Source: Tubulanus polymorphus (taxonomy: Eukaryota; Animalia; Nemertea). Taken from it: a DNA stretch of 64,000 nucleotides. The stretch is from assembly GCF_964204645.1 (NCBI RefSeq), contig NC_134031.1:12092088-12156087 (forward strand), given 5' to 3'. Positions 33,111-63,439 of this stretch are shown here, piece by piece. The position numbers were made by a program, and so were the translations under genes. Position 1 is the first letter of the stretch, and each line of letters begins with the position of its first letter. The notes under the pieces were generated by a model. That model saw only the letters and a program-made list of their open reading frames with translations, had not been told where the DNA came from and ran no database searches.

Positions 33111-33131
33111 ATTAATTTTTTTATTATATAA

Positions 33132-40733: not shown

Positions 40734-40996
40734 TAAAATTAATTTTCTTGTTGAAGATAATTAATGAAAATTTAGAACCAGAAACAATTCCTAAAGAAGT
40801 TAGTAATTCTGAACCAGTAAACTTAAATCAACCGAAGTTCAAACTGAAAAACTTTTACAGAATGGATTTGGCAACAAATCAAGAATTAGAAGATTAAAAT
40901 ATATTTTCTGATAAAGCAATTAGAGAAATAATAAGCATAAGAAATGAAGCTGATAAAATTGAACATGATAAAAAGATTAGAGATGATAAAATAGTG

Positions 40997-42269
40997 TTTT
41001 AGCCCACTTGGGACTTTAGTCCCAGCGGGCTATTGTGTTCACTTTTCGTCCGTCGTCCGTCCGTCCGTAGACGGAATCCAGTTATTTTGGGAAGTTTTGA
41101 AGACGCTTCAAGGTAATGTCTTGATATTTGGTTTATACATGTATCTACCCTAGACACATCTTCAGCCCAAAAACTGGCCCTATCAGAATCAAGATGTCCG
41201 ACTGGCAGCCATTGTTGTTCGCCAAAATCAGCACTTTTTACACATTTTCGAAGTTTACGAGGGAAATTTTGAAGACGATATGATCAATTACCTTGATCTT
41301 TCGAATATATTTGAATCTACCAAGGGCCCATCAGCATAAGAAAAATTGGGTCCATCTGACTCAAGATGGTCGTCCTATGACCTTTTTAGTGCCCAAAAAT
41401 GTAAATTTTGGCCAGAATTCTAGGTCCTGTAGCTTCCTATTGGTTTGCCATTTCTCATTGCAATTTGTGATGGGTATTCTTTGTAAAGGGATGTTTTATA
41501 CCTGAGATAGGTATTTTTGATCCACCAATTATGACGCAATTGGCGGCCATCTTGGTGTCATTAGTACTCATTCGTAGGTGGGAAAAAGTTTTTCGACATT
41601 ATATTGTTACCTAAGCATATTTTGTTACAACAATGAATTAGAAAGTTGTAGCGTATAACGTGTTCTATGATTGGGGTGAGTTTCAAGTTCATTGTTTTTT
41701 GTATATGGCCACCAGGGGGCGTTGAATAATACAATATCTTATATCTTACATATTGCTATATTATATTTGTACCAATACATATTTTGTTACCGCAATCAAT
41801 TGCAAAGTTGTAGCTCATGACATCACCTATGATTGTGGTGAGTTTTAAGGAAATTAGTTATTCTATATCGTCACCAGGGGGCGTTGAATAGTAGAATAAC
41901 CTGGTATTTTCTTATTATATTGGTACCTAGGCATATTTCGTTACCATGATCAATTGCAAAGTTGTAGTTCATGACATGTTCTATGAATATGGTGAGTTAC
42001 AAGGTTATTGGGTTTTGAATATGGTCACCAGGGGGCGTTGAATAGTAGATTAACTTAGTATTTCCATATTAAATTAGTAACGAGGCATTTTTTGTTATCA
42101 CAATCAATTACAAAATCGTAGCTGCTGACATGTTTTATGATTGTATTGAGTTTCAAGGTAATTGGTTTTTGTATATGGTCACCAGAGGGCGTTGAATATT
42201 GAAATTGTTAGATTGTTGAGCATTTGAAACCACTTCCCAAGTGGCCATGGTGTCCCTGGACCCCTAGTT
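40997..42269 (+). mobile_element. Full-length HINE (non-autonomous Helentron, DINE-1-like architecture)
   Basis: T-run + subterminal IR (cccacttgg ... ccaagtgg), (CGTC)n microsatellite, ~150-bp tandem core, 3' GC hairpin and CTAGTT end; inserted at TT inside the coiled-coil gene of copy A. Confidence 0.8.
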
Positions 42270-42385
42270 AGACGATGAATTAGTTAATTCAAGAAAAGAA
42301 TAAGAACAATTAAGGTTAGATAGAGATAATAAAGTTATTGAAGAAATTGAATTTTAAATAAGAACTGCATATTTAGAAAAGAGAA

Positions 42386-43238
42386 AGTTTATTTATCAGC
42401 TTATATAAAACTAACTGGTCATGATAATAATTATGTCGTTGATAATGTTGGAAGATATTTAATTAGAAAATTAATTATAAAGATTGGACCAGAAACAGTT
42501 TTCTCATTAGATGATTATAATTTATTTACGCATTATAACGATTTATGGTTAACAAAATAAAATAGAAATAATATGATATTTCAAGGAATTCAATCCTTAA
42601 ATCAAAATAAATTAAGATCTGAAGCTACGATCTGATACGGTAACCGATGAAAATATTGCTTACACAATTCAAACTAAATACAATCAAGGATGTTCATTAT
42701 TATATGCGTAAATTGATAAATTTAAAACTGTAACTATTAATGCAAATGATGAAATAATTAATGAGAATATTAACTTCCCAAGAAGATCTATTAAAGGTAT
42801 ATTGGTATTTTTTTCCATTGCAACATATTCTGATGGTGCAATAAAAGTTGATAATTATTGTAATCCTGAAATATCAAAAGTTGAAATAACTATCGAAGGT
42901 ATAGCAAATCAAATATTTTGCCAAGGAATGAGAATGATTGATCAATGGGTAGAAATTAAAAAACATTTTATGAATGAAAAAATGAAATCATCTGAAGATT
43001 GTAATATTAATCAAATTGATTATTATACCGGCAATAAATATGCATTATTGTTAGATTTTAGAACGACAGAGGATAACTTATTAAATGGTTCTGGGATAAA
43101 TTTACAAAATACAAAAGATGGAAAACAATTATTCATGAAAAAGAAAAGAGGAGGTTTAAATTATTAAATGCATATTTATATTATATCTGACGCGCAACTG
43201 AATATTATAAATTCTCAATTAGATAGTAGTCAATATTA
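42386..43238 (+). pseudogene. Major capsid protein remnant (copy A)
   Basis: Colinear with 53515-54588, with an internal deletion and stops. Confidence 0.8.
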
Positions 43239-43269
43239 AGAATTTAAAGTTAAAATTAACGATATATAA

Positions 43270-43701
43270 ATGGGGGATAAAACAACTCCAAATACTACAG
43301 AACCCTGAGTGTTCGGTTGCTTATGCTTCTGCAAAAAATATATGGCGCCAAGTAAAACAAGAAAAACTAAATAAGACAATCCCACAGAATTTAATTAAAT
43401 ATAAAGATATAAATGATTTTATGTTAGAACAATCAACATATACAACACATACACAAATTGTTAGAAAATATAAAACTCGTAAAACTATGGTAAGTTATGT
43501 AGATTAACAGTAGCAGGGAGATTTAATTGATATGAAAAATCTTAAAAAAGACAATAATGATTATTGATGGATATTAAATATAATTGATATTTTTAGTCGT
43601 TATGTATGGAGCTTCCCACTTTATAGAAAAGATGCTGCACAAACATCAAATGTTTTAAGAAAATTTCATTCGGGTGGTAGACTAAAACCAGAAAAAATAC
43701 A
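43270..43701 (+). pseudogene. int: RVE integrase of copy A, 5' half (continues at 61756-62245)
   Basis: NPECSVAY..., QGDLIDMKN, WILNIIDIFSRY, KPEKIQ, then interrupted by copy B. Confidence 0.85.
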
Positions 43702-43999
43702 AGTAATAGGGGTAATAGGCTTTCATATCAAAGGTCGAGAGGTCGAGAAAGTAAAAAAATTCAACCTTTGATATGAAAGCCTATTACCCCTATTACTCTT
43801 AAAATATTCATATACATGAATAACATTTAAATTGACAGATTAGTCAATATAAAAGTGTAAGCTCTTATAGAATAGATATATAGATATATTTTAAACATTA
43901 TTTCAATATTTATATTTGTATGAGTTAGATTTTTTTACATTAAAAGTGTTAGTAAAGTGTGATTGAAATAATTCATATTTAAATCATTGAACTTCTAAA
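43702..43999 (+). repeat. Left TIR with terminal hairpin (arms 43702-43738 / 43761-43797)
   Basis: Reverse complement of 61403-61749 except for a deleted hairpin tip. Confidence 0.9.
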
Positions 44000-44029
44000 A
44001 TCAATTAAAAAAAAAAATTTAGTATTAAA

Positions 44030-47000
44030 ATGGAAGCAAATAAGTACTACTGTCCAACATGTAATATCAATATAGATAAATCCCAAAAATCAAGACACAA
44101 TAAAACTCAAACACATTTAGAGAATAAATTGAAATTAGAATATGAAGATGATATATTAGAAACTAAATTAGATGAATTAAAGAATGAAAAAGAAACATAC
44201 AAATGTGATACATGTAATCTATCATTCAGTGATAAAAGATATTATAATGAACATTTAAAATCTAAAAGTCATATTAGAAATATGAATAATGATATTTTAG
44301 GTGAAGATTATTTTGATAAAGATAATGATAAGAAACAGAAGACAATTAAAAGCATAAAAAATAAATTAAACAATAAAAGACCATACATGGAAGATGTAAG
44401 AAAATATATTAATTTATTGGATAATAAAAAGATATAGAGATAACCGAAGCATTTAAAAGTGATATTGGTCCAGCAGCTATCGAGTTTAAATTTCATAAAG
44501 GAAAAACATTAGAAGAAAATAAAAAACATTTAGAAAATATGAAAGAAATAATAAAAATAATAACTGATGTTGAATATCCTAAAATAAGTATATCTTCTAA
44601 AGTTAAATTCATAAAATCTGAAGATAAACCAATATATCATATAAATTCTCATTCACAACATATTATTTCAAAACAACATATAGATGATAAATTAGATAAA
44701 TGTTATAATGAAGTAAAAACTAAAATAGAAGAGAAATATTTTGAAGGATCTGGTTTAATATTTGATGAAATAATATTTATGACTTTACATGTGTATAACA
44801 CAAAATATGATAAGTTAACGAAATCAAAACCAATAGATGAAAATAATGTATCATATTATAAAGAACCAGATATTGAAGCATCGAGTTATATTAAACTACC
44901 ATTTAAAACTAATGCTGTTATAAATGTACAAAATGAAGATGATAAATGTTTTCTATGGGCTATAATTAGTTGCTTACATCCAACAGAAGATATTACACAT
45001 AGTTTTAGATTAACTCATTATAAACCATTTGAAAATAATTATAAGATAGATAAGTATCCTGTTATAATTATAAACATCCCAAAAATAGAAAGAGATAATA
45101 ATATAAAGATAAATGTATTTGATTTAATCAAATTACCAAATACAAAAGGTAATAATATAAAACATTATCCATTAGAACCTTTATATCTATCAAAAGATTA
45201 TGATTCAAATGATGTTATAGATATATTATATTATGAGAATCATTATATGTGGATTAAACAAATAGATTTATTCTTTAGAACAGAAAGTGATCACCATAAT
45301 AAAATATATCTTTGTAGAAAATGTTTACATAAATTCAGTAATGAAAGTACATTATTAAATCATAAACAATTATGTGAAAAAGAAAGAAATTAAATTCTAA
45401 TGAAAATGATTTTTCAGAGGAACCGCCAAAAACAAATACAATTAAAAAGATTCATCAATCAGCTGCAGCTTTCGGGTTATATATAAAATCTGATTATCCA
45501 CAAGTAATTGAAAGTGAATATTATCATTATAGAAATGAAAATGTTATCAATCATTTTTGTGACTTATTAATTGAACATGAAATAAGATTTAGTAAATTAT
45601 TGAATACAAATATAGAAATTATAATGACAGAAGAAGATAAAGAAGCATTTGAGTTTGCAGATAAATGTTATTATTGTGAAAAGATATTTAATTATAAAGA
45701 TAAAAAAATAAGAGACCATGATCATTTGAATGGAAAGTTTAGAGGCGCTGCGCATGAGAATTGTAACTTACAAGCTAAGAAAATTAACTTTGTACCAGTT
45801 ATATTTCATAATCTATCAGGATATGATGCACATTTATTCATCAAACAGTTATGTCATAAAATAGAAGAAATTAATAATGAAATAGAAAGATTAAATTCAA
45901 ATAGATCAAAAGATAAAATACCAACTTATAAATTTAAAATGTTAGCTAAAACATCTGAGAATTATATATCATTCCAATTTGGTTGCCTAAGATTTATAGA
46001 TTCATATAGATTTTTAAATAGTTCATTAGATAACTTATCAAAATCATTAGTTGATGATGAATTAAAAATATTAAAGCAACACTACCCAAATAATGATGAT
46101 TTCCAATTAATGAGATATAAAGGCGCAATTCCATATTCTTTCTATAAAAATCATAATGATTTTAACATAACTGAATTATTGAAAGAACAATTCTATGATG
46201 AATTAAAAAATGAATATGTTAAAGATGAAGTATATAATAGAACATTGAATATTTGGAATCATTTCAAAATAGAAAATCATGGGAAATTAGTAGATTTATA
46301 TTTAAAATCAGATGCATTATTATTAACCGATATATTTGAAAGGTTTAGAGATGTAAACCTAAAATATTTTAATATTGATCCTTGTTATTGTTATTCAAGT
46401 CCAGGATTAACATGGGATTGTGGTTTAAAATTTACAGATATAAAAATGGATTTGTTAACAAATATAGATCAATTATTATTATTTGAAAAATCTATAAGAG
46501 GAGGAGTTTCAGGTGTATTAGGTGATAGATATTTCAAAGTAAATGATAATCCTGGATATAAATTATTATATATAGATGCAAATAATTTGTATGGTTGGGC
46601 AATGATGGAACCACAACCTTATGGAGTATTTGAAATAAGTGAAGTTTTACAACGTGAAAATAATGATAAATTTGATTGGAAGAAAAGAATTCTAGATATT
46701 GCAGATGATTCAGATACTGGTTACTTCTTTGTTGTAGATTTAGAATATCCTGAACATATTAAATTTAAATCTAGAAATCTAGCTTACTGTCCCGAAAACT
46801 GTAACTCATGAAGAATTATCAAATTACCAAAAAAAGAATTAAACCCGAAAATGATATTCATACAGAAAAGTTAATGGTAACTCAGGAAGATAAATATAAT
46901 TTAGAATGTTGAAGTTTTATCTAAATCAAGGAATGATTCTAAAAAAAGTACATAGATATATTTCATTCAATCAATCTAAATGGTTAGAAAAATATATAGA

Positions 47001-47892
47001 TTTTAACACCAAACAGAGAAGTAAAGCTAAAACTGATTTCGGAAAAGATTTCTTCAAGTTAATGAATAATGCATTCTATGGTAAGACTTGTGAAAATATT
47101 AGAAATAGAAATGATATTGAGTTAGTCAGTAATGGTAAAAGAATTAGACGTTTACAAACATATCCTAAGTTCATAGGTAACAGAATATTTGATGAAAATT
47201 TAGCTGCAGTTAAGATGAGAAGAACATCAATGAAATTTAACAAACCAATCTATGTTGGCGCTTCAGTTTTAGAATTATCAAAATTACTAATGTATGAATT
47301 CTATTATAATGTATTACAACCACTTTTTGGAGAAAAACATATATAAATCTTATATTTTGATACAGATTCTTACATATTAAAGATAAAAACTAATAACATA
47401 ACCGATGATTAAAAAACATTAAAACATCATTTTGATTTCAGTAATTATCCTAAAGATCATGAATTGTTTAGCAATGATAATAAAAAAGTTCCCGGTAAAT
47501 TCAAAGATGAATTAGGTGGCGAAGAAATGATTGAATTCATTGGTATTAGATCTAAAATGTATTCATATAAAACTAAAGAACATGAAGCTAAAAAGTTAAA
47601 AGGAATAACCAAAAGTGTAGTAGAAAAGAATATTCATTTCAAAGATTACATCAATTGTATATTCAATGAAGAAGTTAGAAAACATAAGATGAAATGTTTA
47701 AGATCTGAAGATCATGAAATGTTTATTGAAGAAATTGAAAAGGTTAGTCTAAACCCATTTGATGATAAAAGATATATTTTAGATGATGGAATTCATACAG
47801 TTGCTTATGGTTGTAATTTAGATGAATACTTAAAATTTAAAAGAGAAGAAACAAAAGAGAAGGAAATAATGAAAAGAATTCTAACGTGTTAA
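44030..47892 (+). pseudogene. polB: Protein-primed family B DNA polymerase polyprotein, split over ORFs 44030, 44539, 45600, 46906 and 47464
   Basis: Two C2H2 fingers; EGSG (terminal-protein-like); DDKCFLWA..HYMWI (OTU-like protease region, inferred); EndoVII-like CYYC..DHDH..GAAH..CN; YLKSD; motif A YIDANNLYG; motif B KLMNNAFYGK; motif C YFDTDS (~47352). Exo I region deleted relative to copy A. Confidence 0.95.
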
Positions 47893-47922
47893 TCAAATTT
47901 TAATAAAAAATATGTTATTAAA

Positions 47923-48276
47923 ATGGAGAGTAAACAAACACACAGTGAGAACAACAAATTATTTCTAGATAGAATAAAAGATACTTCAAATATCAAATCA
48001 GTAGATTATAAATTTAAGAAGTCAAAAGAATTAATAATCCATAAGAAATATCTAATTACAAATATTGATACAGTTACTAACAAATATGGAGATAAATTAG
48101 TTATACACTTAGAATATGAAGGATTAAAAGGAAATACATATAAATTCAGAACATATTTACCGGATAGATTTCATAGATTATCAAGTGAAGATCTAGAAGA
48201 ATTATGTTGTGGTGATTTCTATTTCGTATACAAAGGTAAGAATGAAAAAGGGCACCATGAAATAGATTTCGAATAA
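47923..48276 (+). CDS. Hypothetical 117-aa protein, possibly a small beta-rich ssDNA-binding type
   Basis: Intact ORF directly after pPolB; NKYGDKLVIHL..YLPDRF pattern; function is a guess. Confidence 0.7.
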   Translation: MESKQTHSENNKLFLDRIKDTSNIKSVDYKFKKSKELIIHKKYLITNIDTVTNKYGDKLVIHLEYEGLKGNTYKFRTYLPDRFHRLSSEDLEELCCGDFYFVYKGKNEKGHHEIDFE

Positions 48277-48293
48277 GAAAATATGTAAAATAA

Positions 48294-49041
48294 ATGGTAG
48301 AATTAAAAGAATACAGAATATTTGTTGATTCTAGAAAACTTACAAATTATAAATCACATAATTTACTAGTTCAATTAGATAGAGAATTTAAGAATTGTGT
48401 TGATTTAAAATTAGTTAATATAAGTTTATGTAATTCTTTTCATAATATATCGAATAAAAGTCTTGATCATTTAGCTTTTAAAATTCATGTTAGAAATTTG
48501 AATAAATGGTTTCATCTTTATCTAAAACCAGGATTATATAATTTAGAAACATTAGCGCAAGAAATTAATAGAAGAGCTCGTTTAAAAATGGGCGCAGCTG
48601 CTAGATTTGAAATTAAATTTATCAAAAGTGATAGTTCCAATAAAATAAGAATAAAGTTAACTAATGAACAACATAGATTTCTAGTAAGAAAACCTTTAGC
48701 TAAACTGTTTGGAATTCTCCTGGATAGAGATTATTCAAACTTATACAAATTTAATGACTTTTACACATTTTTATATTTATTGCAATTTAATCAATCCTAC
48801 AAAAACATTTGAAGCAACTAAAGATACAATTTGTAATTCTAGTATATTAAATATTTTACCATTAAAAAATGTCAAACAATTTGGAACTCAAATCAATTAT
48901 AATTTAACTGAATGTGATTTTAAACCTTGTATTCCACATTTCAATAATTTTAAATTAGAAATAAGAAATCATAATGGTTATTTAATTGATTTGAATAACT
49001 TTCCTGTGATATATGAATTAGTTATAGTGTGTAGAGAGTAA
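48294..49041 (+). pseudogene. Minor capsid (penton) protein, one frameshift near 48720
   Basis: IFVDS..., CNSFHNI, LKPGLYN, FYIYCNLI, LEIRNHNGYLIDLNNFP..ELVI: pattern typical of Polinton/virophage single jelly-roll penton. Confidence 0.75.
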
Positions 49042-49057
49042 TTTTTTCATTATATAA

Positions 49058-49636
49058 ATGAATATAACTGTTGGACCGAGTATATGTTTTGGGTTTGATT
49101 TTAAACGTGAGAAAGAAATGAAATTCAACATTTCTGATGTAATTACACATATTAAAAATATTGCATTTTCTAATGAAACAACATTTGAGTATGAAAAGAC
49201 AATAGATAAAGAAACTTTAAATGTAGAAAAGATTACTAATTTAATTAGAGAATCTTTAAGATTTTATGAATTAGATGAAGATTTTATCATCGATGATATT
49301 AAAAAAATAATAATTGAAATATATACAAATGAAACTAGTAATGAAATAAATGTTGAATTAATCATCACTAAGATAACTAAATATTTTGATGATAGTAATT
49401 TTGTTGATAAATATATGAGTGATAATAAGTGGATAATAACTGGATTATATAATGGAGCATTACTATCAGTTGGAACTGTTGGTTATTCAATGGTATTAAA
49501 AAAAGTATTCAAAATGGGAAGTGTTAATGTTGATAGATTTGATATAAATGATATCTTAAAATTAACGTTAGCAGTTACTTTATCTAATTTAACTATTGAT
49601 TATTTGGAAAAACAAAAATATATTCCTCCCATATAA
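49058..49636 (+). CDS. Hypothetical protein with a hydrophobic C-terminal domain; probably a fusion of two genes (second start 49415)
   Basis: The C-terminal part is a separate ORF in copy A (32127); TAAAT sits at 49408, just before the internal ATG. Confidence 0.7.
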   Translation: MNITVGPSICFGFDFKREKEMKFNISDVITHIKNIAFSNETTFEYEKTIDKETLNVEKITNLIRESLRFYELDEDFIIDDIKKIIIEIYTNETSNEINVELIITKITKYFDDSNFVDKYMSDNKWIITGLYNGALLSVGTVGYSMVLKKVFKMGSVNVDRFDINDILKLTLAVTLSNLTIDYLEKQKYIPPI

Positions 49637-49660
49637 ATGCATATTTTTTTTGCTAAATAA

Positions 49661-50081
49661 ATGGCTTCTGCAATTATAACTATTATAGGATCGGCAATTG
49701 TTAACGCTTTAGCATTTACTGGTGGTGGTTATTTATTCAAGCATATTGATAAAAGTAGTTCATTAGGAGAACAAAGAAGACATAACTTAGCATTAGAGAA
49801 ATACAATGAAGCAGCAGAAGAATATAGAGAAAAGAGAAAACTATATGGATTATATTAACAAGGAATTATATGATCAGAAGATTTCACATAGAGATTTTCA
49901 ATCAGTTGATGATGCAATGAGTTTATATAACGCGGTAACCAATAAAGAAAAATTACATCTATACAAACCTAAATTATCAGATTATTATACCCCAAGTAAA
50001 GAACAACAGAAATATGAAATAATATGGATTTTAGGTGGAACTGTTATTGTTATATTTGTTGCTTATAAGTTTACTAATTAG
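49661..50081 (+). pseudogene. Small membrane protein (N- and C-terminal hydrophobic segments), one frameshift
   Basis: MASAIITIIGSAIVNALAFTGG..EQRRHNLALE joined to ..YEIIWILGGTVIVIFVAYK. Confidence 0.7.
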
Positions 50082-50102
50082 TAATTTTTTTTTGCTAAAT
50101 AA

Positions 50103-50528
50103 ATGGATGATAATATTGATATTATTCCTCATGATATAAATAAAACTAAATTAAAAATATATTTAGAAAAACAAATATTAGAATTTGAAAGTGACTTAAA
50201 GATAAAAAAGAAAAAATATTTAAAATCTAAAATTATATATTATCTTATTATTAGTGGTTCAGTTACAATTAGTTCTGTAATAACATTTTTAGCAATATTC
50301 AGTCCATTAACACCTTTAGCTATATCAATTGGTGTATTAGGATTAAGTTCAAGTGTTTTAACTGGTATAAGTTCAAAATTAAATATAAAAAGTAATAAAG
50401 AAAAAATTAAAACTAATATAAAAGAAATTAATAAATTAAAAAATACACTAGATTATATAATAAGTTTAAATGGCCATATAACAGTTGAAGAACAAGATAA
50501 ATTATTAAAAGAATTAATAAATTATTAA
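50103..50528 (+). CDS. Two-TM membrane protein
   Basis: Intact 141-aa ORF; hydrophobic hairpin flanked by Lys-rich coiled segments; conserved in copy A. Confidence 0.75.
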   Translation: MDDNIDIIPHDINKTKLKIYLEKQILEFESDLKIKKKKYLKSKIIYYLIISGSVTISSVITFLAIFSPLTPLAISIGVLGLSSSVLTGISSKLNIKSNKEKIKTNIKEINKLKNTLDYIISLNGHITVEEQDKLLKELINY

Positions 50529-50544
50529 TTTTTTAATTATATAA

Positions 50545-51920
50545 ATGGTAGATAGTTTTCCAAAAGCTTTCCAATATGATAAATCAATTAAATATAATAT
50601 TCCAGCAATAGATTTTAATAAAGATATTACATATAGAAATGAAGTTTTAGATTCATTAACTAATTTAGAAATTTATGTTACTGAAACTAATAATTTTAAT
50701 GCAAAGATGGAAAATATATTTCGTGTATATTTAATTAATTTTAAAAAATTGAAAGATGAAAAACTATTGTTATTAAAATCTAATACCAAGTATTGGCAGA
50801 ACCAATTAAATTTTGCTGTTTATTGTGCAACAACAGGTTGTGGAATTAGTTGGAATGATCATTTGAATAATTCTAAATATAAATTAATTCAAAGTTTATT
50901 TAGATTTCATACATACTTTCAAATCAGAATAATATTAAATGAATTAGAGTGCGCTTTACCAGGATCTAGATATTTTAAAGAATTAGATAATAATATTAAT
51001 TTATCAAAGTTTTATAAAATTTGTAATGAATTTGATATAGATATAAATAATTCTGATTTTAGAACAAAAATTGGAACAATAAGATCACTTCCTTGCCCTA
51101 AAAAGATTGCAGAATATTGTGGACTTCCCATACCATCTAATAGCTTTTATAATATCTATAATAATAAATTAGGTTATGCTAAAATAGAAACAAAGGATTT
51201 AGAATTTCAATAAATTACCGAAATTTTATGATCATTTAAAACAAGAAAACAATAATGGTTGGGTTTATTTTAGAAAATAATGAAGGTTTTACAAAATCAG
51301 GTATACAAAGAATAACTCAATCTAGTAGAACTTATTTGATATGTATTCTAGGATCACAGGTTGAAACAAGATCCCCAATAATTGGAAATTTAAATACATC
51401 ATTTGATGCACAGAAACAATTCAAAGTATTATTTGAAGATTCAATTCATAATGATAAAAATAGATCGATTCCAGAAAACATTGTAAGATATCAAAATTAT
51501 CTAGATAAATCACATATTAGACTAAATTATTGTATAGGCCCTAATCTATTAATTATTTCTAATGATTTAGTATTAAAGATGGGAAACATAATTGGTTATA
51601 ATAATCTAATTAAAACTGCAACAATAAATAATTCATTTGGATTAAATGATATAAATAAAAAGATTATTACTGCTCCAAAATTAATGGAAGGTGAAAAAAA
51701 TAAAAAACATATTCAATCAACTGAAACTAAAACTAATAATATTAAATTAAATAATGATTCTAAAATAGAAGATTACAATACATCAGAAGATATAAAAACT
51801 GATAATATTCAACATGATATAATTAAACTAAATGATGATAATAAATCCCATGAAAATACTAAATTAGCTATAACTTGTATAGGAATTGTAATCGGAGGAA
51901 TATTATATTTTAAATTTTAA
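50545..51920 (+). pseudogene. Conserved unknown protein (WQNQLNFAVYCATTGCG) with C-terminal TM anchor, split near 51213-51255
   Basis: Two consecutive ORFs; only the first has the TAAATG start; ends LAITCIGIVIGGILYFKF; homolog in copy A. Confidence 0.65.
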
Positions 51921-51935
51921 TTTTTTATTATGTAA

Positions 51936-53318
51936 ATGGATGATGATAATATTGATGATGATGATGATGAATCAGCATATAATTCTAATTTAGCAGATAG
52001 TGGTTCTGAAGGCCCATCAACAGATGAATTTGATAGAACTAGATCGAGAATAAATCCTGAAAATGAAAATCAAGGTTTATTAAAGCAAAATTTAGAATAT
52101 AATGAATATATTTATAATTTCAAACATGTATTTGAAAATTCTGGATATAATATAAATGCTAGAGGCGCCAGACTTTTAGTACAAGAATTAAAGTTTTTAA
52201 ATGGTGAATATTATTATCGTTTGAAAGATGATTCGGATTATTATATTGATATCTCTTATAAAAAATAAGAAAAAATATTAGCAGAACTTTGCTTAAGTTA
52301 GACCTATCTAGAATTAAAAGAATAAGAAATAGTAATGAAGTAGAAAATGCAACACAAGAAGAAAGAAAGAGTATTTAAACAAAGAATTAATAAGTTATTT
52401 GAAACAATCGATAATAATTTAGAACCAAAAAGAAACTCTGAACAGAATAAAACTTCCAAAACTAGTAAACTTAAATCAAATAAAGTTCCAATTGAAAAAC
52501 TTTTACCAAATGGATTACTTGATGCAACAGATCAAGAATTAGAAGATTTAGATATATTTTCTGATAAAGCAATTAGAGAAATTATTAGTATAAGAAATGA
52601 AGCTGATAAAATTGCGCATGATAAAAGTATAAGAGATTTTAAAATTAGAACTTTGGAAAAAGACAGAACTGATAAAATTAAAGAAATAGAACAATTGAAA
52701 TTAGATAGAGATAATAAAGTTTTTGAAGAAATCGAATTTAAAAAAAGAAATGCGTATTTAGAAAAAGAAAAAGATGATTTAGAATATAACATAGAATTAC
52801 AAAAAGAAGAAATTAAATTATTATTAAAATCATATGATTATAATATTAATAGATTAAAAGTTATTTTTAAAGAGTTAATAATAAAACCAGATTCTAAAAT
52901 ATCATTAAAAGATAGAATAAGATTATTATTTAAGTTAGAAGGTATAACAATTCTTTCAATTCTAACAGCTGTAACTATGTTATTTACAACAATAGGTTTA
53001 GCAATATCAAATGCTTTAAAATCTACTCCTACTCCCAATAAACCACATGAACCCCCAGATAATAATTCTATACAAGATAAAGTTAAGGATGGTTTAAAGA
53101 AATTAGCAAAATATTTATGGGAACTATCTAAAAAATCTGCTGCAGCATTACCAGGAATTATTGCATCAATTGTTGGTTTCATATTGAAATCTGCAGGAAA
53201 CATTATTAACTTTGCTGCTGAACATATTATTTTATTTTTAATTACAGTTGTAAGTGCAATTATTTTTGGGTTAGTAAACATGATATCAAAAATATCAAGT
53301 AAACATGATCAAAAATAA
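51936..53318 (+). pseudogene. Acidic / coiled-coil protein with C-terminal hydrophobic helices, split near 52268-52347
   Basis: Long E/K-rich coil followed by EGITILSILTAVTML..., ALPGIIASIVGFIL, HIILFLITVVSAIIFG. Confidence 0.7.
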
Positions 53319-53342
53319 ATAATTAATTTTTTTGTTAAATAA

Positions 53343-54588
53343 ATGAGTGGGAGTTATATCAATCCTTCTAAGAATCATAGAATATCTAATGCTATTGAAG
53401 CAGAAAGATCACATCATATAATTACTCATAACCCTTCTAATATTAATCCTGATGAAACTTTATATGTTAGAATTCCTCGATTAACACAAAATACTTTTTA
53501 TCTTCCAAATAGTATTTATTTATCAGCTGATATAAAATTAACCGGTAATAATAATAATTATGTTGTTGATAATGTTGGAAGATATTTGATTAAAAAATTA
53601 ACAATAAAGATTGGCCCAGAAACAGTTTTCTCATTAGATGATTATAATTTATTTATGCATTATAAAGATTTATGGTTAACTAAAGAAAACAGAAATAATA
53701 TGATATTTCAAGGAATCCAATCAGAAAACCAAAATAAATGAAGATCAGAAGCACATAATGCAATATCTACTAATGCTATAGATAAATTGATAAAAAGTAT
53801 GTACGGAAGCAAATATAAAATTCCATTAGACTTTGAATTGATAAATAATAATGCGCCTTTATATAAATACGCAATTCAAGAAGACGTTATATTCGAAATA
53901 ACATTTGCTCCTGTTAATGAAATTGTAATATCTAGCGTTAATAAAGATATGAGTTATAAATTATCGAATATATGTTTAGAATATGATACAGTAACTGATG
54001 AAAATATTTCAAGTATAATTCAAACTAAATACAATCAAGGATTTTCATTATTATATGATTATATTGATAAATTTAAAACTGTAACTATCAATGCAAATGA
54101 TGAAATAATTAATGAGAATATTAACTTCCCAAGAAGATCTATTAAAGGTATATTAATATTTTTTACCATTGCAACATATACTAATGGCGCAATCAATGTT
54201 GATAATTATTATAATCCTGAAATAACAAAAGTAGAAATAACTATCGAAGGAATAGCAAATAAAATATTTTGTCAAGGAATGAGAATGATTGATCAATGGC
54301 CAGAAATTAGAAAACATTTTATGAATGAAAAAGTAAAATCATCTGAAAATTGTAATATTAATCAAATTGATTATTATACCGGTAATAAATATGCATTATG
54401 GTTACATTTTAGAACAACAGAGGATAATTCATTACATGGTTCTGGGAAAAAATTACAAAATACAAAAGATGGAATACAATTATTCATGACAAAGAATAAA
54501 GGAATCAAAAATTTTAAAATGCACATTTATATTATATCTGACGCGCAATTAAATATTGTAAATTCTCAATTAAATAGTGTTATGTATA
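53343..54588 (+). pseudogene. Major capsid protein (predicted double jelly-roll)
   Basis: ~415 codons, beta-rich (NPSNINPDETLYVRIP, YKIPLDFEL, YKLSNICLEYDTV, RSIKGILIFF); in-frame TGA at 53739 (TTA in copy A); native stop near 54588 lost through a 1-bp deletion relative to copy A; fold inferred. Confidence 0.75.
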
Positions 54589-54622
54589 AGAATTTTAACT
54601 TTAATAAAAATTTATATGATAA

Positions 54623-55444
54623 ATGGAAGGAGGTAAAGTATATACACATATTCCATACATCGATACACATGAAAATAATGATGGTTTATATTATGTATTA
54701 CCTTGTAATATCGCTTTGATATTTGATCCTATTTTCAAAATTTATAAAACTAAACTAATAGAAATCGATAATAATAAAAGTGGTGTCGTTGATAATTTAA
54801 GTAATGTAATTGATAATAATGTAATACCTTCTACATCTAATAATGTAATACCTTCTACATCTAATAATGTAATACCTTCTACATCAAATAATGAAATGAT
54901 ATTAAATATTAGTGAAAAAAGAAATTATTGTGATTATTGTAAAGGTGAATTTTCAAACGCTCCATCAAATTGGAATAAACATATGAATACAAGGGTACAT
55001 ATTACTAATGTTATAGAACGTGTTGGTTTAAGAGAATTTATAGAACACCCATTTAGATATGTTACAAAGTTTGTTTCAAATAAAAAAGTAAATGGTAAAG
55101 AATTATATGAAGATTTATTATTAGCAACACCTAACAAAGATGAATTAGATTTAACCGATGCTAATAAAATATTAGGATCAAACATTGTAAATGAAATATT
55201 AGGAGCAAACACTAATAAAGATAATAATGAAAATATAGTTACAGATATTGATAATAAAGATTCTATGAAACATAAAGTAGAAAATAATGATAAATTTGAT
55301 TGGATGAATAAGCATAACAATGAAACAACTATTGATGATGCGGTAAAAAGGGTGAAGAATAAGTATAAAAATAATGAAGAATTAGAAGATTCGATAGAGC
55401 ATTTGAATAAATTGTTAGGGGGGTCTGATAGTGAAAGTGATTAA
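54623..55444 (+). CDS. Hypothetical protein with a C2H2 zinc finger and three NNVIPSTS repeats
   Basis: Intact 273-aa ORF; CDYC..WNKHMNTRVH; 24-bp tandem repeat at ~54815-54890. Confidence 0.75.
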   Translation: MEGGKVYTHIPYIDTHENNDGLYYVLPCNIALIFDPIFKIYKTKLIEIDNNKSGVVDNLSNVIDNNVIPSTSNNVIPSTSNNVIPSTSNNEMILNISEKRNYCDYCKGEFSNAPSNWNKHMNTRVHITNVIERVGLREFIEHPFRYVTKFVSNKKVNGKELYEDLLLATPNKDELDLTDANKILGSNIVNEILGANTNKDNNENIVTDIDNKDSMKHKVENNDKFDWMNKHNNETTIDDAVKRVKNKYKNNEELEDSIEHLNKLLGGSDSESD

Positions 55445-55826
55445 GATATTAATTATATTTAACTCAAAAAGTAATAAAGGTTGAAAATTGTAAAAATAAT
55501 ATTTATTTAAAAAAAGGGGGTTTTAAGTATTTAAGGTATTTAAGGTATCTAATACATATCTAATACAATCTAATACAATCTAATACATAAAATATCTTAT
55601 TTTATAAACTGATATTCACATGGAAATCGAAACCTCAGTAACAATAAATAACCTTTATTATTTTCAAACTTATTCATATATTCGTTGAAAAAATAAAAAT
55701 AAATTGGTTGAAAATTGTATAAATAATATTTATTTTAAAAAGGGGGTTTTAAGTATTTAAGGTATCTAATAGGGTCAGGTATTAGGGTATCTAATAGGGT
55801 ATCTAATACATAGGTATACAAATAGT

Positions 55827-56436
55827 TATTTTATAAATTTATATTCATAGGGAAATTGTAGTCTCAGTGATAATTTGAACCTTTATTATTCTTTAATTTA
55901 TTCATATATTCATCATGTAATTTAGTAGGCATAATTTGATTTTCTTCCAATGATTGTTGCATAGATTTTCTATCTTTATTGTAGAATAAAACTAGAAATC
56001 TTATATTCTCCCTAAGGTCTTTAACAATTGAATTATATTTTTGATTTAAAACCCATGTTGTTATCCCAAAATGTCTCCCAGAGAAAGCTAAGTAACATAA
56101 CTCACTTTCTCTCACTTTTCAATCATGTAAATTTGCGCAATCATCTACAATGAATAATGTATTTGATTCTTTATAGATATCAATTGCTATTTTAATACAA
56201 TTATCTAAATTTTCTTTTACTGTTTTAGGATCTAATATAATAAACTTTTTTATCTTAACTATATCTCTATTATATGTTTTATTCATTTCATAAGTAGGAC
56301 AGAATAATATAATATTATCAAAATGATTCTTATAAATAGTTTCTAACAAATCTAATATGAAATGTGTTTTACCACAGTTGGTTACACCAGTAACTAACAT
56401 ATTATGCGGTTCAAATATAAATAAATCTTTATTCAT
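55827..56436 (-). pseudogene. A32/FtsK-HerA-type genome packaging ATPase
   Basis: Walker A GVTNCGKT, Walker B FIVDD, GRHFGIT..NQKY..LRENI; in-frame TGA at 56119 and a frameshift near the 3' end. Confidence 0.9.
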
Positions 56437-57520
56437 TTATTCTTTTAATTTTACTAGATAAAATCCATTCTTTAAATTTATCATCATATCCTTTATATTT
56501 CACCAAAGAATACTTTTTTCCTTTAAGAGTTTTTGATTTCAATACTTTTTCTATTTTGTATTCTATTTCATCTGGATTTGGTACAAGTGATAATTCTTGT
56601 TCATAGAAATAACCTAATATTTCTTCATCTTTTAAATCTTCTAATTTATAAACAAATGGTTTAGTTAATATTATCTTTTTAATCTTGAATATTTCTTCTG
56701 TAAAATTTGGGGTATAACCTTTATAAAAGGTTTTTCTATATTTAGATATTCTTACGTGTTGTCCAATTTTAAATTTAGGTTCACCGAAATCATGTGTAAC
56801 AAATGCTCCATATAAATTATTCCATACTATTTCTGAATTATCTTCTTTTCTAGCTTGTATAGGTTTCATATTTATAGAACTATGTTTAGAATTGTTATAA
56901 CCTTTCACTAAATCATCTAACACATCGATATATTTATATGTTTCATTAGCAGTAAAATATTTCCACATTCTAGTTTTCAATGTTTTATTAAATCTTTCTA
57001 TAATAGATGCTTTTTTATCTGAATGTGTTGAAAAATAATCTACATCGTTATCAGATAATAGTTTTTTGAAATGTTTGTTATAAAATTCCTTACCTTCATC
57101 AAATTGTATCTTATCTGGAATAGCTTCTTAAAATATTGATTTAAAAACATTTGTCACTTCTATTCCAGTTTTATTTTTGATTGGAATTGACCATGCGTAT
57201 CTACTGAATATGTCTATAACATTTAATATCCAGAAATATCCTTTGTTGTATTCCTCTAAGTTCTTCATGTCAATTAAATCTGCTTGCCATTGTTGATCGC
57301 TATATGAAACCATAACTTTTCTTGTTAAATAAGTTTTATCCATTTTCTTATGGATTTGGTATGTTGGTTGATTTTGTAACCATAATCTTAGTTCACTATA
57401 TTTTGTATTACCATTTTCATTATCAGATTTAATTTTATTCCATAATTCTGAAACGTTAGGATATGATACTTCACTTTCTGGGTTGTAATATAAATCTCTT
57501 AAATATTGTTCTTTTTTCAT
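56429..57520 (-). pseudogene. int: Retroviral-type (RVE) integrase with C-terminal chromodomain
   Basis: WQADL, IDIFSRYAW, IQFDEGKEF, IIERFNKTLK (D-D-E triad); chromodomain YKIEKVL..LVKYKGY..EWI; one in-frame TAA at 57128. Confidence 0.92.
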
Positions 57521-57526
57521 CTTATT

Positions 57527-57895
57527 TTAATCCATTAAAAATAATTTAGATTTAGTTTCAATGACTTTATGATTTGACTTATTTTCTGGTATAATAGGTT
57601 TATTATCATTGGAATCATCTTTATCATCAGATTTATACTTATATTTATATATTACACCGGATAATATAATAATTGTGATTAACCCAATTGTAATATATAA
57701 GTAATTATTTCTTCCACTATTAGAAGAATCAGATGGATTATTATTTGAATTAATATCAGATAAAGTCTGTGATTCATTTATATCAGTTAATTTCTTTTTC
57801 TTAGCTTTTTTTAATTCTGAAGATCTTTTACCTAATTCTCTTGACCATTTAATTTGTTTCTCGGATCTAGGCTTTTTCTTAACGCCATCACTCAT
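57527..57895 (-). CDS. Small basic protein with one TM segment
   Basis: Intact ORF; Lys/Arg-rich N-terminus; YLYITIGLITIIILSGVIY. Confidence 0.7.
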   Translation of the reverse strand: MSDGVKKKPRSEKQIKWSRELGKRSSELKKAKKKKLTDINESQTLSDINSNNNPSDSSNSGRNNYLYITIGLITIIILSGVIYKYKYKSDDKDDSNDNKPIIPENKSNHKVIETKSKLFLMD

Positions 57896-58496
57896 TTATT
57901 TTAGTTAATTTTTGTTCTGATTCATTTTCTGTTTCGACGTTTGGTTGTAGTACATCAGTTTCGTTCTTACCTGATTTATATTCCATAGGCTTGATGTTCG
58001 AAAATGTTATGACACCAGTAGAAATTAATGTCATAACAGATCCTAATTGAAATGAAGCATAACCAACCCATTTTTGTAATTCAGTCATAACTAAGTAGTC
58101 ATTTTTTAAATCACTATATAATTTATTTTCATCATCAATTGGTATTAACTGGTTACATAACTTAGAATAACATTTGACAATACCATCTGAAATAGAATCA
58201 TTTATTCTAGCTAATCTTGACTCTTCATAAATCTTAAAATGTTTTATTGCTTTATCTGGTTTCATAGCATCTAATTCTTGAAAAGTAATGATCTTAGTTA
58301 AAAACTCTTTACATTTACCACTCGCAATTAGTAATTCAAAATGGTGTTTACAATATAAGTAGTATTCATAATCTATATTACAATTAACTTGAATATTATT
58401 TTCAATTTTGGTTGGAATATCCTTATTATCACTTTGACCCAAATCATCTAATGTTTTTTCAATACCAATACTATTCTTACTCGATTTCTTTGACAT
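57888..58496 (-). CDS. Hypothetical 202-aa protein with a hydrophobic C-terminal segment
   Basis: Intact ORF with T6-N7-TAAATG start context. Confidence 0.7.
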   Translation of the reverse strand: MSKKSSKNSIGIEKTLDDLGQSDNKDIPTKIENNIQVNCNIDYEYYLYCKHHFELLIASGKCKEFLTKIITFQELDAMKPDKAIKHFKIYEESRLARINDSISDGIVKCYSKLCNQLIPIDDENKLYSDLKNDYLVMTELQKWVGYASFQLGSVMTLISTGVITFSNIKPMEYKSGKNETDVLQPNVETENESEQKLTKINE

Positions 58497-58796
58497 TTAT
58501 ATTAGAGAAAAAAGCGAAAAAAAAGTATTATAAAATGATACCAGCATCTCTTTGGGTTAATACTAGTTAGTTAAAGGTAAAGAATTTTAGTATTAGTTAT
58601 TGTTTTTTTAGTATTTTTTATTTGCGATATAAAGTATTCTCTTTTGAAAAGAATTGTAAAAGAAAGTATTAAAAATTAAAATAGAAATAATGGCTAGTTG
58701 AAGGGATGTAATTTTTAATATATTTTATTTGAATTCTATTTGATATCTCACTACTTTTGTTTATCTATTAGGAGCAGTAATTATAACTGTCCAGAT

Positions 58797-59010
58797 AAGT
58801 CATTTCGGATCCTTGATATCAAATTCCTCAACGTATTGTTCATTATTTGGATCATTGTTCCATTGATCAATAAATTTCTTTGCCTTTGTTAACTGTTCTA
58901 TATATAACTGTTAATCTAGTTTATTAGATTTTATTTTATTTTCTTTCTTTTCAAGAGGTCCTAAATTTTTCCAATTCCAAATAAGTTTTTTATTGTATTC
59001 ATCATTCCTT
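58797..59010 (-). pseudogene. 3' remnant of a second HNH/EndoVII-like gene
   Basis: Translates DEYNKKLIWNWKNLGPLEKKENKIKSNKLD*QLYIEQLTKAK, paralogous to 60703-61026. Confidence 0.7.
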
Positions 59011-59223
59011 TCAATTTATAAATCAAATTTTTATTAAAATTGATTAACATTTTAGAATCCTCTTCCATTTCTTCGACTAACGTCATCCTTTTTCAATCCT
59101 CGCTGCTTTTGATAAGTCATTTCGGATCCTCGATAATAAATCCTCAACTGAAAATCAATTCAACGAAACGACTGGTGGAAATATTATTTCATAAACATAT
59201 ATATTTATTATTAAAATTTTAGC

Positions 59224-59540
59224 GATCGATAATAGAACAATGGAGAACAATAGAAAAGCGGTCCAATCGGACCGGTTATTGCGCAATACTTAGTTAACAG
59301 TAATCAATCAATACAGAACAACCGCCGCCATTAACAACGATCAATAATAGAACAATGGAGAACAATAGAAAAGCGGTCCAATCGGACCGGTTATTGCGCA
59401 ATACTTAGTTAACAGTAATCAATCAATACAGAACAACCGCCGCCATTAACAACGATCAATAATAGAACAATGGAGAACAATAGAAAAGCGGTCCAATCGG
59501 ACCGGTTATTGCGCAATACTTAGTTAACAGTAATCAATAC
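59224..59540. repeat. 115-bp tandem repeat, ~2.8 copies, palindrome-rich
   Basis: aatagaacaatggagaac at 59231, 59346 and 59461; each unit has cggtcc-aatc-ggaccg and tattgcgcaata. Confidence 0.95.
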
Positions 59541-59607
59541 AATATTAAAACAGATATATACAATCGAGATTACATTTTTTGATATCTAAGACCTTCAGTG
59601 TTATAAT

Positions 59608-60336
59608 TTATAATTTTGTCCAGAATTCTTTAATTACTGGATTGTTTCCAATCATTTCTTCAATTTCTGGTAAATATCTGACTACTTCACTAAATGCTAA
59701 TCCTAATATTTTGAATTTTTCATATTTTATTAATCTACCTACTCTTCTCAGTTTTCTTTCAAAACCGGCACTGATATCTATGTTCTTTTTAACCCACAGC
59801 CCCCAAGAAATCCCCTCAGTTTCTTTATCAAACATTGAAAACCCTATATTTAGATAACCCCCGAAAATGATGTGGTCCCATAGGTGATTTGCTTTTCTAT
59901 TTAATATGGTTTTATAACTTTTTTTAAAGATATCAGTAATTTCAGCAAATGAAATAACTTCTACACTTTGTATTTCCGAAAAGTTTAAATGATCTGTGTC
60001 AATGATTAATTTAGATTTTAAAAACTCGTTCAACTCTTCTCCACTCATTTTCTTAGTTTTCGATTCTTTGAGTCCCAACAGCAATTTAAGTCGCGTTGCT
60101 GGTCATTTTGGTAATTGTAGTTCGCGCGGTAATTGTTTATTATGTATTACATCACTCAGAATTTTCACCATTTCTTGATGATAGTCCAAATGTTCTTGCA
60201 ATTTTTGTGAAGTTTGTTCGTCAATTACGAGAGTTTCATCCTCCATTTCTATTGATTCCTGAGTTTCACTATCCAGCAGCAATCGTTCCTCACCCGTTGG
60301 TTGGCTTAGAATTTCTGGTTGATCTCTGTATTCCAT
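59608..60336 (-). pseudogene. Hypothetical gene (ORFs 60103-60336 and 59608-60084) preceded by a leader intron
   Basis: Adjacent same-strand ORFs; diverged homolog in copy C (VVKYLPAIE vs VVRYLPEIE). Confidence 0.6.
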
Positions 60337-60702
60337 TTTAATCTAAAAGATGTCGTGGAAATGAATTACTGTACTTAAATATGTTTAAAGGTTTCCCTAC
60401 TTCATAATAACTACAAAAAACGGTACTTACATTTAGATTTAGAACTGTAAACTGTGTTTTGAGAGAGAATATCCAATACGTACTATGTATGTGAAAGTTG
60501 ATTTCTAACTGCCGACGTGGCGCACGTTCGACCAAACTAATTATTTCTGCATGTTTGCCTGGATTGTAACAGATGTTCTTTATGATGAAGTTAATTAATT
60601 CTTTAGAATTGAAAACAAGATATATTTGGCAACATATGTTTTCGTAGTAAGCAAAAGCTATGTATTATAGACATACAAAGCTCAAATAGAATTGCCAGCT
60701 TT

Positions 60703-61372
60703 CTAACCACTGATTAAAACCTCAGAATGCGGTTGATTCTGTGAAATACTATTCCATAATTCAACAAATGTCTTTGCTTCATCCAGTTGATCTAAATATA
60801 ATTTCATATCTAGTTTGTTAGATTTAATTATATTTTCTTTCTTTTCTAAAGGCCTTAAATTTCTCCAGTTCCAGATTAGCTTCTTATTATAATCATCACT
60901 CATGTCAAATTTAGAAATCGGCAACACGTGATCAATATGAAAGTATTCACCATAATTATCTATATTCATTTTATCATCGAATTGATATATTATCCATGAT
61001 TTTAAGAATTCATCTGAACAACCCAATAAATTAGATAAGTGTTTCTGAATGTATTTCTTTGTTGAATAATTGTGTTAATCTAGTCCTTAAGCATTGTTTC
61101 AATCTAAAATTAAGATCTGTTTTATATCTTTCTCTCATATATTCTGCCATATAATAATTATAATGTTCTATATTATCTTCTCGATATTGTTTGGTATATA
61201 GTTGAAAACAAGTTTTACAGCAATATTGAAAACCATCTTTGCTAATCTTACGCTTATTAAATTCTGTTATAGCTAATTTATCTACTTCACATTTAGAACA
61301 CTTCTTGTAGTATATGTTTATAACACCAGTGTTATTTTTAATATTGATAGTTTGTGGTTGTTCTGATTCCAT
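60703..61372 (-). pseudogene. Zinc-ribbon + HNH/EndoVII-like endonuclease of a type common in large DNA viruses; one frameshift near 61030
   Basis: KKCSKC..DGFQYCCKTC; HIDHVLP..WNWRNLRPL..EN..KSNK. Confidence 0.8.
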
Positions 61373-61402
61373 TTATTATACATATTTTTTTACTAAATTA
61401 AA

Positions 61403-61749
61403 TTTAGAAGTTCAATGATTTAAATATGAATTATTTCAATCACACTTTACTAACACTTTTAATGTTTAAAAATCTAACTCATACAAATATGAATATTGAA
61501 ATAATGTTTAAAATATATCTATATATCTATTCTATAAGAGCTCACACTTTTATTTTGAATAATCTGTCAATTTAAATGTTATTCATGTATATGAATATTT
61601 TAAGAGTAATAGGCTTTCATATCAAAGGTCGAGAGGTCGAGAAAGTAAAAAAATAAAAAATAAATTCTCGCACACTCGAATTTATTTTTTATTTTTTTAC
61701 TTTCTCGACCTCTCGACCTTCGGTATGAAAGCCTATTACCCCTATTACT
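61403..61749 (-). repeat. Right TIR with terminal hairpin (62-bp arms 61606-61667 / 61678-61739, 10-nt loop)
   Basis: Direct base-pairing check: 2 mismatches in the stem. Confidence 0.92.
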
Positions 61750-61755
61750 AGTACA

Positions 61756-62245
61756 ATTTGATGATGGAAAAGAATTTGATAATTCATTTGTTCATGGGCT
61801 ATTAGATTATCATCATATTAAATATTTTTCAACAAAATCGGATAAAAAAGCAGCAGTTGTTGAACGATTTAATAGAACATTAAGAACAAGAATGTCAAAA
61901 TATTCAAAAAATTCACAGCAAATAATACGTATAAATGGATTGATATTTTACCAAAATTGATAGAAGTTTATAATGATTATTATCCTTCTTCTATTGGAAT
62001 GAAACCTATTGATGCTAGAAATCCCGAAAATGCTTAAATTGTTTGGAATAATTTATATGGGGCATTTCTTGTAGATGATTTTGGTGAACCTAAATTTAAA
62101 GTTTGTCAAAATGTTAGAATTTCTAAGTATAAAAACTAAATTACTTAATTTAACTTATTAATTTTACTAGAGAAATATATAAGATAAAAAAAGTAATAAC
62201 AACAAAACCATATGTCTATAAATTAGAATATTTGAAAGGCTGAAT
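61756..62245 (+). pseudogene. int: RVE integrase of copy A, 3' half
   Basis: Resumes FDDGKEFDN..KKAAVVERFNRTLRTRM..GEPKFKV, in frame with KPEKIQ once copy B and one TSD copy are removed. Confidence 0.85.
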
Positions 62246-63439
62246 CCAAGAACATGTCTATCGCACTTTTGAGCCCAAACGTCTACTTTTACTTAGTAGC
62301 CAATAGAGAACAATAAGCAATTAACGATATCAGCTACTTTTCCAGTAGTATACATTTCAAAACAGTCACTCTGAAATAGTATTCCTTTCAATTCGGTTGG
62401 TTTTCTATAGAAGCTGTTTTCGAAGAGTCTACTATTGAAAAGTGACCAGTTTAAAACATATGGTTTCGATAGTGCAGTAGAGGTGACTGTAAAACCACCC
62501 GGCTGTAAACAGTGACTTTGTGATAGTAACTCTTACCGTAACAGCTACTCTCAGAACACATCGTTTCTAAAAGTCAACTATTGAAAAGTGACCATTTTGA
62601 GATGGCATGGTAATTTCCTGTTCGAAATAGCAGCATCCATTAATACGAAAATGTAGTGCCAGTCCTAGAATTTTTAGAATTTTAAGATTTTTGTTTTACA
62701 TTTGCGATTATAAAACATTCCGGTGCGTTCATAAATCTTTGATTTTGTAGAAAAAAAGACAAAAACATAAATTCGTCTATTAGGCTTAATTTGTTTTTAA
62801 GGGTATATGAGAGAGGAATATACAAATAAAATCATATGTTCAGAAAATGAATTACGAAAAAAAAGTATCTAAAATACTTAGAATTAACCTTGAATTTATT
62901 GTTTATTTCGATAGAAACGATTTTTAAGTAATCCATGTGATGTTCACTTTGTCACGCTGTCCTCTGCTTCTTCGTTAATGAATATTGAATCGTTTTATCG
63001 CTTGCTAGAAGTGATACCCTAATCAAAATCTTATTTCGTAGTTATACGGTTTGGTTGAAATGAAATTACCAACTTGTTATAAAAGATCAAAGGATTAGCG
63101 TTGAGTGTTGAGATGTTCACATAATTTTGAAATCAGCAATTTCATTTGATAGAGAAAACTTCGTTTGGCTTAAGAAGAGAAAGAAATGCGATAGGCTGTA
63201 ATTTCAGTTTCACTTACTTTCCTACTTTGTTGAGTTTATTGTTTATATAGGTTATCAAAAACCCAGCAGCAGCTATCGGTCAGCAGGTCAATTACACTGG
63301 CTAACTAGACAGTGATTGATGAACGAATGTTACTGCACTAACCACCAAAAGACCACAACCAAAAGTAATTATAATAGTAAATATAGCTGCAAAGCAGCGA
63401 TAACGGGTTTTCTGCACAGTCTTAGAATCCTGTTCAACG

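Follow-up and report, generated by a model that had tools for sequence, protein, structure and literature searches.

Fold-back palindromes at the ends of a Tubulanus polymorphus Polinton and a possible fold-back origin in a protein-primed replication cycle

How would a Polinton replicate when the tips of both its TIRs can fold back on themselves? The window analyzed here, the whole 64,000-nucleotide stretch of Tubulanus polymorphus contig NC_134031.1, contains an AT-rich element of 18,048 bp (43702–61749) in which the hallmarks of a Polinton/Maverick were found: a pPolB gene, an rve integrase, TIRs, AGT termini, a 6-bp TSD, a major capsid protein (MCP), and a packaging ATPase. The element and its insertion site comprise the following features, with the strand in brackets.

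42295–43701, resuming at 61750–62238: related Polinton remnant, whose integrase gene is the insertion target
43696–43701: left TSD, 6 bp, identical to the right copy at five of six positions
43702–43797: left terminal palindrome, short form, with a 37-bp stem and a 22-nt spacer, flush with the terminus
43798–44018: left inner, non-palindromic part of the TIR, matching the right one at 196 of 203 aligned bases
44030–47892 (+): pPolB gene, with several frameshifts and in-frame stops
53343–54719 (+): MCP gene, in two pieces, with 86 homologues
55864–56436 (−): A32-type packaging ATPase gene, interrupted by a stop
56429–57520 (−): rve integrase gene with a C-terminal chromodomain, interrupted by a stop
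60703–61372 (−): gene adjoining the right TIR, spread over two frames
61384–61604: right inner part of the TIR
61605–61749: right terminal palindrome, long form, with a 62-bp stem and a 10-nt loop; the true terminus is 61749
61750–61755: right TSD

The pPolB gene is built of zinc fingers, a terminal-protein (TP) domain, a vOTU domain, an HNH/EndoVII domain, an exonuclease, and a polymerase, and matches the profile PF03175 (E 1.4e-11); relatives in insects and corals share ~40% identity with it, and closer relatives also exist. The ATPase matches Pox_A32 (E 4.4e-6), the rve profile is matched by the integrase piece (E 2.9e-4) and in the relative L002 (E 6.5e-9), and the MCP match to Capsid_N (E 1e-3) lies below the cut-off. 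The gene beside the right TIR has no Pfam match on the piece scanned and carries, recognized by eye, what we take to be an HNH-like motif. No match to an adenain-like maturation protease was found in the 22 ORFs scanned, a set that covers only some of the shorter or broken frames, and neither an HUH Rep nor an A22-type resolvase was seen among the ORFs scanned. Stops and frameshifts disrupt the core genes, which makes this Polinton copy a fossil.

The right palindrome pairs residues 61606–61667 with 61678–61739 around a loop at 61668–61677. Recomputation gave the same 62-bp stem, two mismatches (61622/61723 and 61624/61721), and 10-nt loop as the preliminary description of this locus, with a DNA fold of −61.4 kcal/mol (z −17.4) equalled by none of 200 shuffles. 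The 37-bp stem reported for the left end also stands, with one mismatch and a z of −15.8. When at most two mismatches and a loop of at most 30 nt are allowed, the longest stem in the element interior measures 17 bp, and 12 of 12 Markov simulations yielded 14–19 bp. The motif AGTAATAGG opens the left end (43702) and, reversed, closes the right end (61741–61749); as reported earlier, it occurs inverted again further in, at 43789–43797 and 61605–61613. Some points of the earlier account had to be revised. The palindromes had been placed inside the TIRs and are instead their outermost part, and the left end had been described as the right one with its tip deleted. The deletion is not symmetric: the 58 nt missing on the left were lost unevenly, as 13 nt of the outer arm, the 10-nt loop, and 35 nt of the inner arm. 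A 9-nt repeat unit is present in the left inner arm and absent from the right one, so that the left palindrome is flush with the end (34 terminal pairs) and the right one carries a flap or bulge of 9–10 nt. The long stem is AT-rich in its middle. In the integrated copy, both arms are open and extended and reach the 6-bp TSD. A third end of the same family lies upstream of the element.

39905–40081 (−): third, older left-type family end, with an inner arm and a loop-like stretch; the outer arm is missing

Taken alone, this third end does not fold (z −0.42). A direct repeat of AGGTCGAG is found in the arm (43732–43747 and 61626–61641) and is kept in the metagenomic relative L005 too. The repeat is CpG-rich (observed/expected 1.8 versus 0.6 in the element), resembles nuclear-receptor half-site repeats, and, judged by its sequence, is a candidate protein-binding core of the origin.

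Is the fold-back peculiar to this copy? We mapped ~12% of one raw WGS run bearing the same species label, plus three contig sets, on positions 61300–62500. Depth on the last 41 bases reaches ~2,020, and 1315 and 454 terminal reads run off at 61749/61750 into unlike flanks (agreement 0.33–0.36), which fixes the terminus at 61749 and points to many insertions. Coming from inside the element, 957 reads depart from the reference after 61613; their majority continuation agrees with the left inner arm at 26 of 30 letters and with a long form containing the 9-nt unit at 23 of 30, and 53 more reads contain this unit as an insertion. These 957 and 53 inner-arm reads, set against ~1,770 terminal reads, indicate that the inner arm is common in the family, the counts being exclusive of the repeated centre of the long form and made with an 85% filter that would drop outer arms six changes away. 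The short left-end form appears to be the majority in the host, a reading that depends on the last letters of a single majority continuation, and the left end of the element fits a widespread short variant better than it fits decay in this copy. Of 30 letters, 4 differ between the majority inner arm in the reads and that of this copy. The mismatch at 61721 is peculiar to this copy, with ~99% of reads differing from it. Loose read ends are also seen at 61399 (588 reads) and 61570 (404 reads), marking subfamilies with a different inner TIR or neighboring gene.

Fold-back chimeras are a known assembly problem, and the reads counted here do not include those over the repeated centre of the long form, which leaves some room for a one-off local duplication or an assembly artefact. 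This reading is largely refuted and hardly credible, since the fold-back occurs at each end with its own set of indels, recurs in an old third copy, is seen in ~1,000 reads from an independent run, and is shared by two further assemblies.

Outside the host, 119 loci (80 + 23 + 16) were retrieved with an alignment of 13 pPolB relatives, and 62 of them reach 500 nt or more beyond the TP region on its upstream side; most have no identifiable end and were left out as uninformative, and L005, which falls below the 500-nt cut, was read by hand. Eight loci are at least 57% identical to the query, and three of the eight, all metagenomic, reach the left end (L004, L001, and L005). A homologous fold-back is present in two of these three informative relatives, at ~80% pPolB identity. 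Specifically, L004 (81% identical to the window's pPolB piece) carries a 257-nt fold-back (z −13.9) that begins and ends like that of the window, is homologous to the window arm (E 2e-7), and lies flush with the end through 10 terminal pairs. L001 (80%) starts within the palindrome and preserves 17 bp of its stem and a recognizable inner arm (z −2.4). In L005, at 66% pPolB identity, the outer-arm motif is recognizable (E 7e-9) and the inner arm is missing (z 0.01). The expectation that the fold-back is a family feature rather than a local duplication is thus borne out by the inner arm in the host reads and by L004 and L001.

The palindromes are kept paired across related elements. The two arms are 95% identical within the window's right end and 90% within L004, as compared with 76–85% between the two elements. 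Compensatory changes had been proposed as a check, and a comparison of the window with L004 found co-variation between the arms: 16 columns are altered in both arms, 12 are broken, and 44 have stayed as they were. About half of the 16 fall in an A-rich region of uncertain alignment. Stem lengths vary widely across elements (37, 62, and ~110 bp), and so does the loop. As the long centre is also present outside the host, the short form is likely derived. Exact and degenerate scans of the viral_contigs set for the end motif gave no matches, and no viral loci were found with a single-protein pPolB query or with an MCP alignment. The TIR-bounded contig L102 has no long fold-back (z 0.68), and two further candidates, L091 and L059, were rejected as tandem repeats with short palindromes.

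Co-variation between arms can stem from copying of one arm from the other without selection. By extension, the whole palindrome might be a by-product without a selected function, regenerated and homogenized by snap-back copying during strand-displacement replication, an explanation that we consider rather doubtful. It would account for L005, which has no inner arm, and for the deletion that made the short form, in which the outer-arm motifs survive and most inner-arm motifs are lost; a 966-bp Polinton-derived fold-back at 37814–38779 shows that such inversions arise here, and accidental annealing is named as an alternative in the main text of bioRxiv 10.64898/2026.07.28.741278. Against a by-product, three elements with ~20% divergence between their polymerases have kept the same arm in its flush terminal position. 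Long palindromes are, moreover, generally unstable.

The mode of replication is addressed by three domains within pPolB.

44428–44800 (+): terminal-protein domain, with a predicted linking Ser at 44749–44751, between helix 2 and the last strand
44900–45260 (+): vOTU-like protease domain, with Cys (44947–44949) and His (45241–45243) present
45666–45767 (+): HNH/endonuclease VII-like domain (PF02945, E 7e-5, just under the curated cut-off)

The open stretch 44428–45390 was predicted to fold with a mean pLDDT of 83.5. The predicted topology is strand-strand-helix-strand-strand-helix-strand, with Ser108 in a GSG loop that precedes the final strand, the same topology as that given for TP domains in PMC11071308. 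Y-family polymerases, including an isolated little-finger domain, are the best PDB matches of the TP/vOTU model, all of them weak (E > 0.005), and this likeness agrees with a section heading of PMC11071308. The best matches among viral structures are adintovirus, MELD, and bidna-like pPolBs (E 3e-16 and up). In 52 aligned proteins, the TP Ser is conserved in 51, the vOTU Cys in 51, and the vOTU His in 50, and both the TP and vOTU motifs are also present in L001 and L004. On the evidence of sequence and model, the TP module with its priming serine and the vOTU catalytic residues appear to be retained in an intact-looking form, in keeping with the TP-like region first ascribed to this pPolB. Since the fold-back coexists with this intact-looking module, the hybrid replication mode suggested in the preliminary description is plausible; the closed hairpin ends that it envisaged for the free form are not supported.

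With closed ends, covalently sealed hairpin telomeres would prime replication and be nicked at their inner boundary in the style of AAV or poxviruses, the HNH domain of pPolB serving as the nickase and the loop flip-flopping between orientations. The geometry of the terminal palindromes suits self-priming, an HNH/EndoVII domain is at hand, and the loop-like stretch of the third end fits the right loop better when reversed (22 of 25 letters versus 15 of 25). A model of this kind is proposed for protist virophages and PLVs in the main text of bioRxiv 10.64898/2026.07.28.741278. We nevertheless regard closed telomeres as unlikely, given that the TP Ser and vOTU residues are retained, that the integrated copy is open up to the TSD, and that L005 has the origin motif without an inner arm. 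The HNH motif, too, occurs in the fold-back-less L005, and in the sections of PMC11071308 and PMC10748475 that treat them, HNH-type domains of pPolBs are interpreted as homing-nuclease insertions; the HNH piece of this element gave only irrelevant matches against PDB sequences. The evidence for flip-flop is weak and mixed. The orientation of the third-end loop speaks for it, but this end is old, has ~44 extra bases ahead of the loop-like stretch, and could contain a piece of another end at this point. The polarity of one arm column speaks weakly against it, with C in three of four outer arms and T in all four alignable inner arms, a pattern that full inversion should scramble.

The retained TP Ser and vOTU residues, together with integrated ends that are open and full length with a TSD, lead us to favor a fold-back origin over closed hairpin telomeres. 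With moderate confidence, we interpret the palindromes at the TIR tips as an origin that works by folding back, in a replication cycle where TP priming has likely been kept. TP-pPolB would start at the terminal AGT and displace one strand, whose 3' end would snap back onto the inner arm. The snap-back would make the origin double-stranded again at one end, with no need for the other TIR, 18 kb away, as a partner, and would both shield the 3' end and provide a paired 3'-OH. Two routes could follow. In one, TP-pPolB would initiate opposite the 3' terminus and copy arm, loop, and arm; in the other, the paired 3'-OH would be extended as a DNA primer, and TP-pPolB would later re-initiate at the stem origin. 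By either route the end would come out open, full length, and non-inverted, matching what the integrase inserted. If the folded end were trimmed and refilled, one arm would be copied from the other, which would help to keep the two alike. The likeness of the arms within an element, the co-changed columns, the flush position, the inner-arm reads, and the TP/vOTU residues support this model; the homology is backed by two related elements, and the whole of the support comes from sequence and predicted structure. Given that L005 has no inner arm, elements of this kind may be able to do without the fold-back.

The palindrome could alternatively be an excision signal, a chromosomal cruciform cut at the element boundary by an element-encoded junction nuclease that frees the provirus. 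Endonuclease VII has a junction-resolvase fold, and here an EndoVII-like domain is fused to pPolB and a second HNH-like gene sits beside the right TIR; the branch point would fall exactly at the terminus, and the centre of the long stem is AT-rich. This role seems distinctly unlikely to us, as the HNH match falls under the Pfam cut-off, lacks a relevant match among PDB sequences, and occurs without a fold-back in L005. A combined scheme, in which one strand is TP-primed, the other primes itself through its hairpin, and the EndoVII-like domain of pPolB cuts the terminal cruciform or hairpin, would be an undescribed hybrid cycle in a Polinton clade and is a tentative, somewhat doubtful proposal. 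If true, it would release the provirus and reopen its ends, explaining how integrated Polintons exit. Chromosome exit and second-strand synthesis of Polintons have so far been only a model on paper.

The preferred reading, a fold-back origin in a TP-primed cycle, has partial counterparts in known systems. AAV/parvovirus ITRs and poxvirus/ASFV hairpin telomeres are alike in size and in flush self-priming geometry; unlike them, the present element retains the TP, and the stems in the window are simple rather than T-shaped. In adenovirus, TP priming likewise requires that the origin on the displaced strand become duplex again, and the two distant ITRs pair in a panhandle, whereas here each end could rebuild a duplex origin locally. 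The Tap/Tpg telomeres of linear Streptomyces replicons combine a 5' terminal protein with terminal palindromes that form folds in the single-stranded 3' end, and such a fold-back can be extended as a primer in vitro, as described in PMC4513846 where these telomeres are treated. They differ in having several short palindromes, an internal origin, end patching, and unrelated proteins, and the likeness is one of description, with no homology claimed.

Polintons/Mavericks (Polintoviricetes; 'adintoviruses') are alike in their size of ~18 kb, TIRs, AGT start, 6-bp TSD, pPolB with TP and vOTU, rve integrase, MCP, and A32 ATPase. The ends of this element begin with AGT and a short repeat and are bordered by a 6-bp TSD, as are those of ordinary Mavericks according to the main text of PMC8097293, and these ends are in keeping with the TP-primed model; the difference is that the TIR tip is here a fold-back of 96–257 nt. 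The words 'hairpin' and 'palindrom*' are absent from the main texts of PMC8097293, PMC8502044, and PMC10748475, and no report of long terminal fold-backs on animal pPolB Polintons was found in the open-access literature. The preliminary description set the simple TIRs of typical Polintons against the hairpin telomeres of poxviruses, asfarviruses, and parvoviruses. Terminal palindromes do have precedents in this virus group, in the endogenous virophages and PLV subtype 4 of Halocafeteria seosinensis, which have palindromes within TIRs adjoining the TSD (52 nt in subtype 5; main text of bioRxiv 10.64898/2026.07.28.741278). The same main text offers a hairpin-priming model and associates the palindromes preferentially with non-pPolB replication genes, although its supplements may list pPolB cases. 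Terminal palindromes with a hairpin-priming model are therefore already known from protist virophages and PLVs, mostly without pPolB. The present element differs in being a pPolB element with intact TP/vOTU residues, in its longer palindromes, and in the co-variation between elements. It widens the range of terminal palindromes, so far mostly protist elements without pPolB, to include true pPolB Polintons. Being conserved, co-varying, and flush with the end, on elements that retain the terminal protein, the fold-back offers a defined DNA substrate for three separable predictions: a local duplex origin, self-priming, and cruciform cutting.

Three other fold-backs, on more distant loci, were picked after scanning the 119 loci, and only some of them are demonstrably ends; no sequence likeness to the window arm was found in any of the three. 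On the viral contig L090, a 184-nt branched, AAV-like palindrome (4657–4840, z −13.9) separates divergent genes directly upstream of a pPolB with 33% identity and could be an end junction or an internal origin. L076 has a 183-nt palindrome (7526–7708, z −21) just upstream of a decayed pPolB gene. L032 is a 16.8-kb TIR-to-TIR contig whose 108-bp TIR (1–125 and 16650–16779) contains a hairpin of 14–15 bp (z −4.05 and −2.44).

Within the window, the element belongs to a nested Polinton cluster, in which it sits in the integrase gene of a relative. Older fragments of the same family surround it at 29918–33682, 39017–40081, 40751–43701, and 61750–62238, with 69–93% identity. The fold-back at 37814–38779 is a near-perfect palindrome, with two mismatches in ~469 bp and a 28-nt loop; its inner part is Polinton-derived, matching 59010–59142 and 61217–61399, and its outer part is another repeat. 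It is either a recent fold-back inversion or an assembly chimera. The element itself contains internal tandem duplications at 59223–59544 (115-bp period, 99%) and 55473–55911 (~220 bp, 78%).
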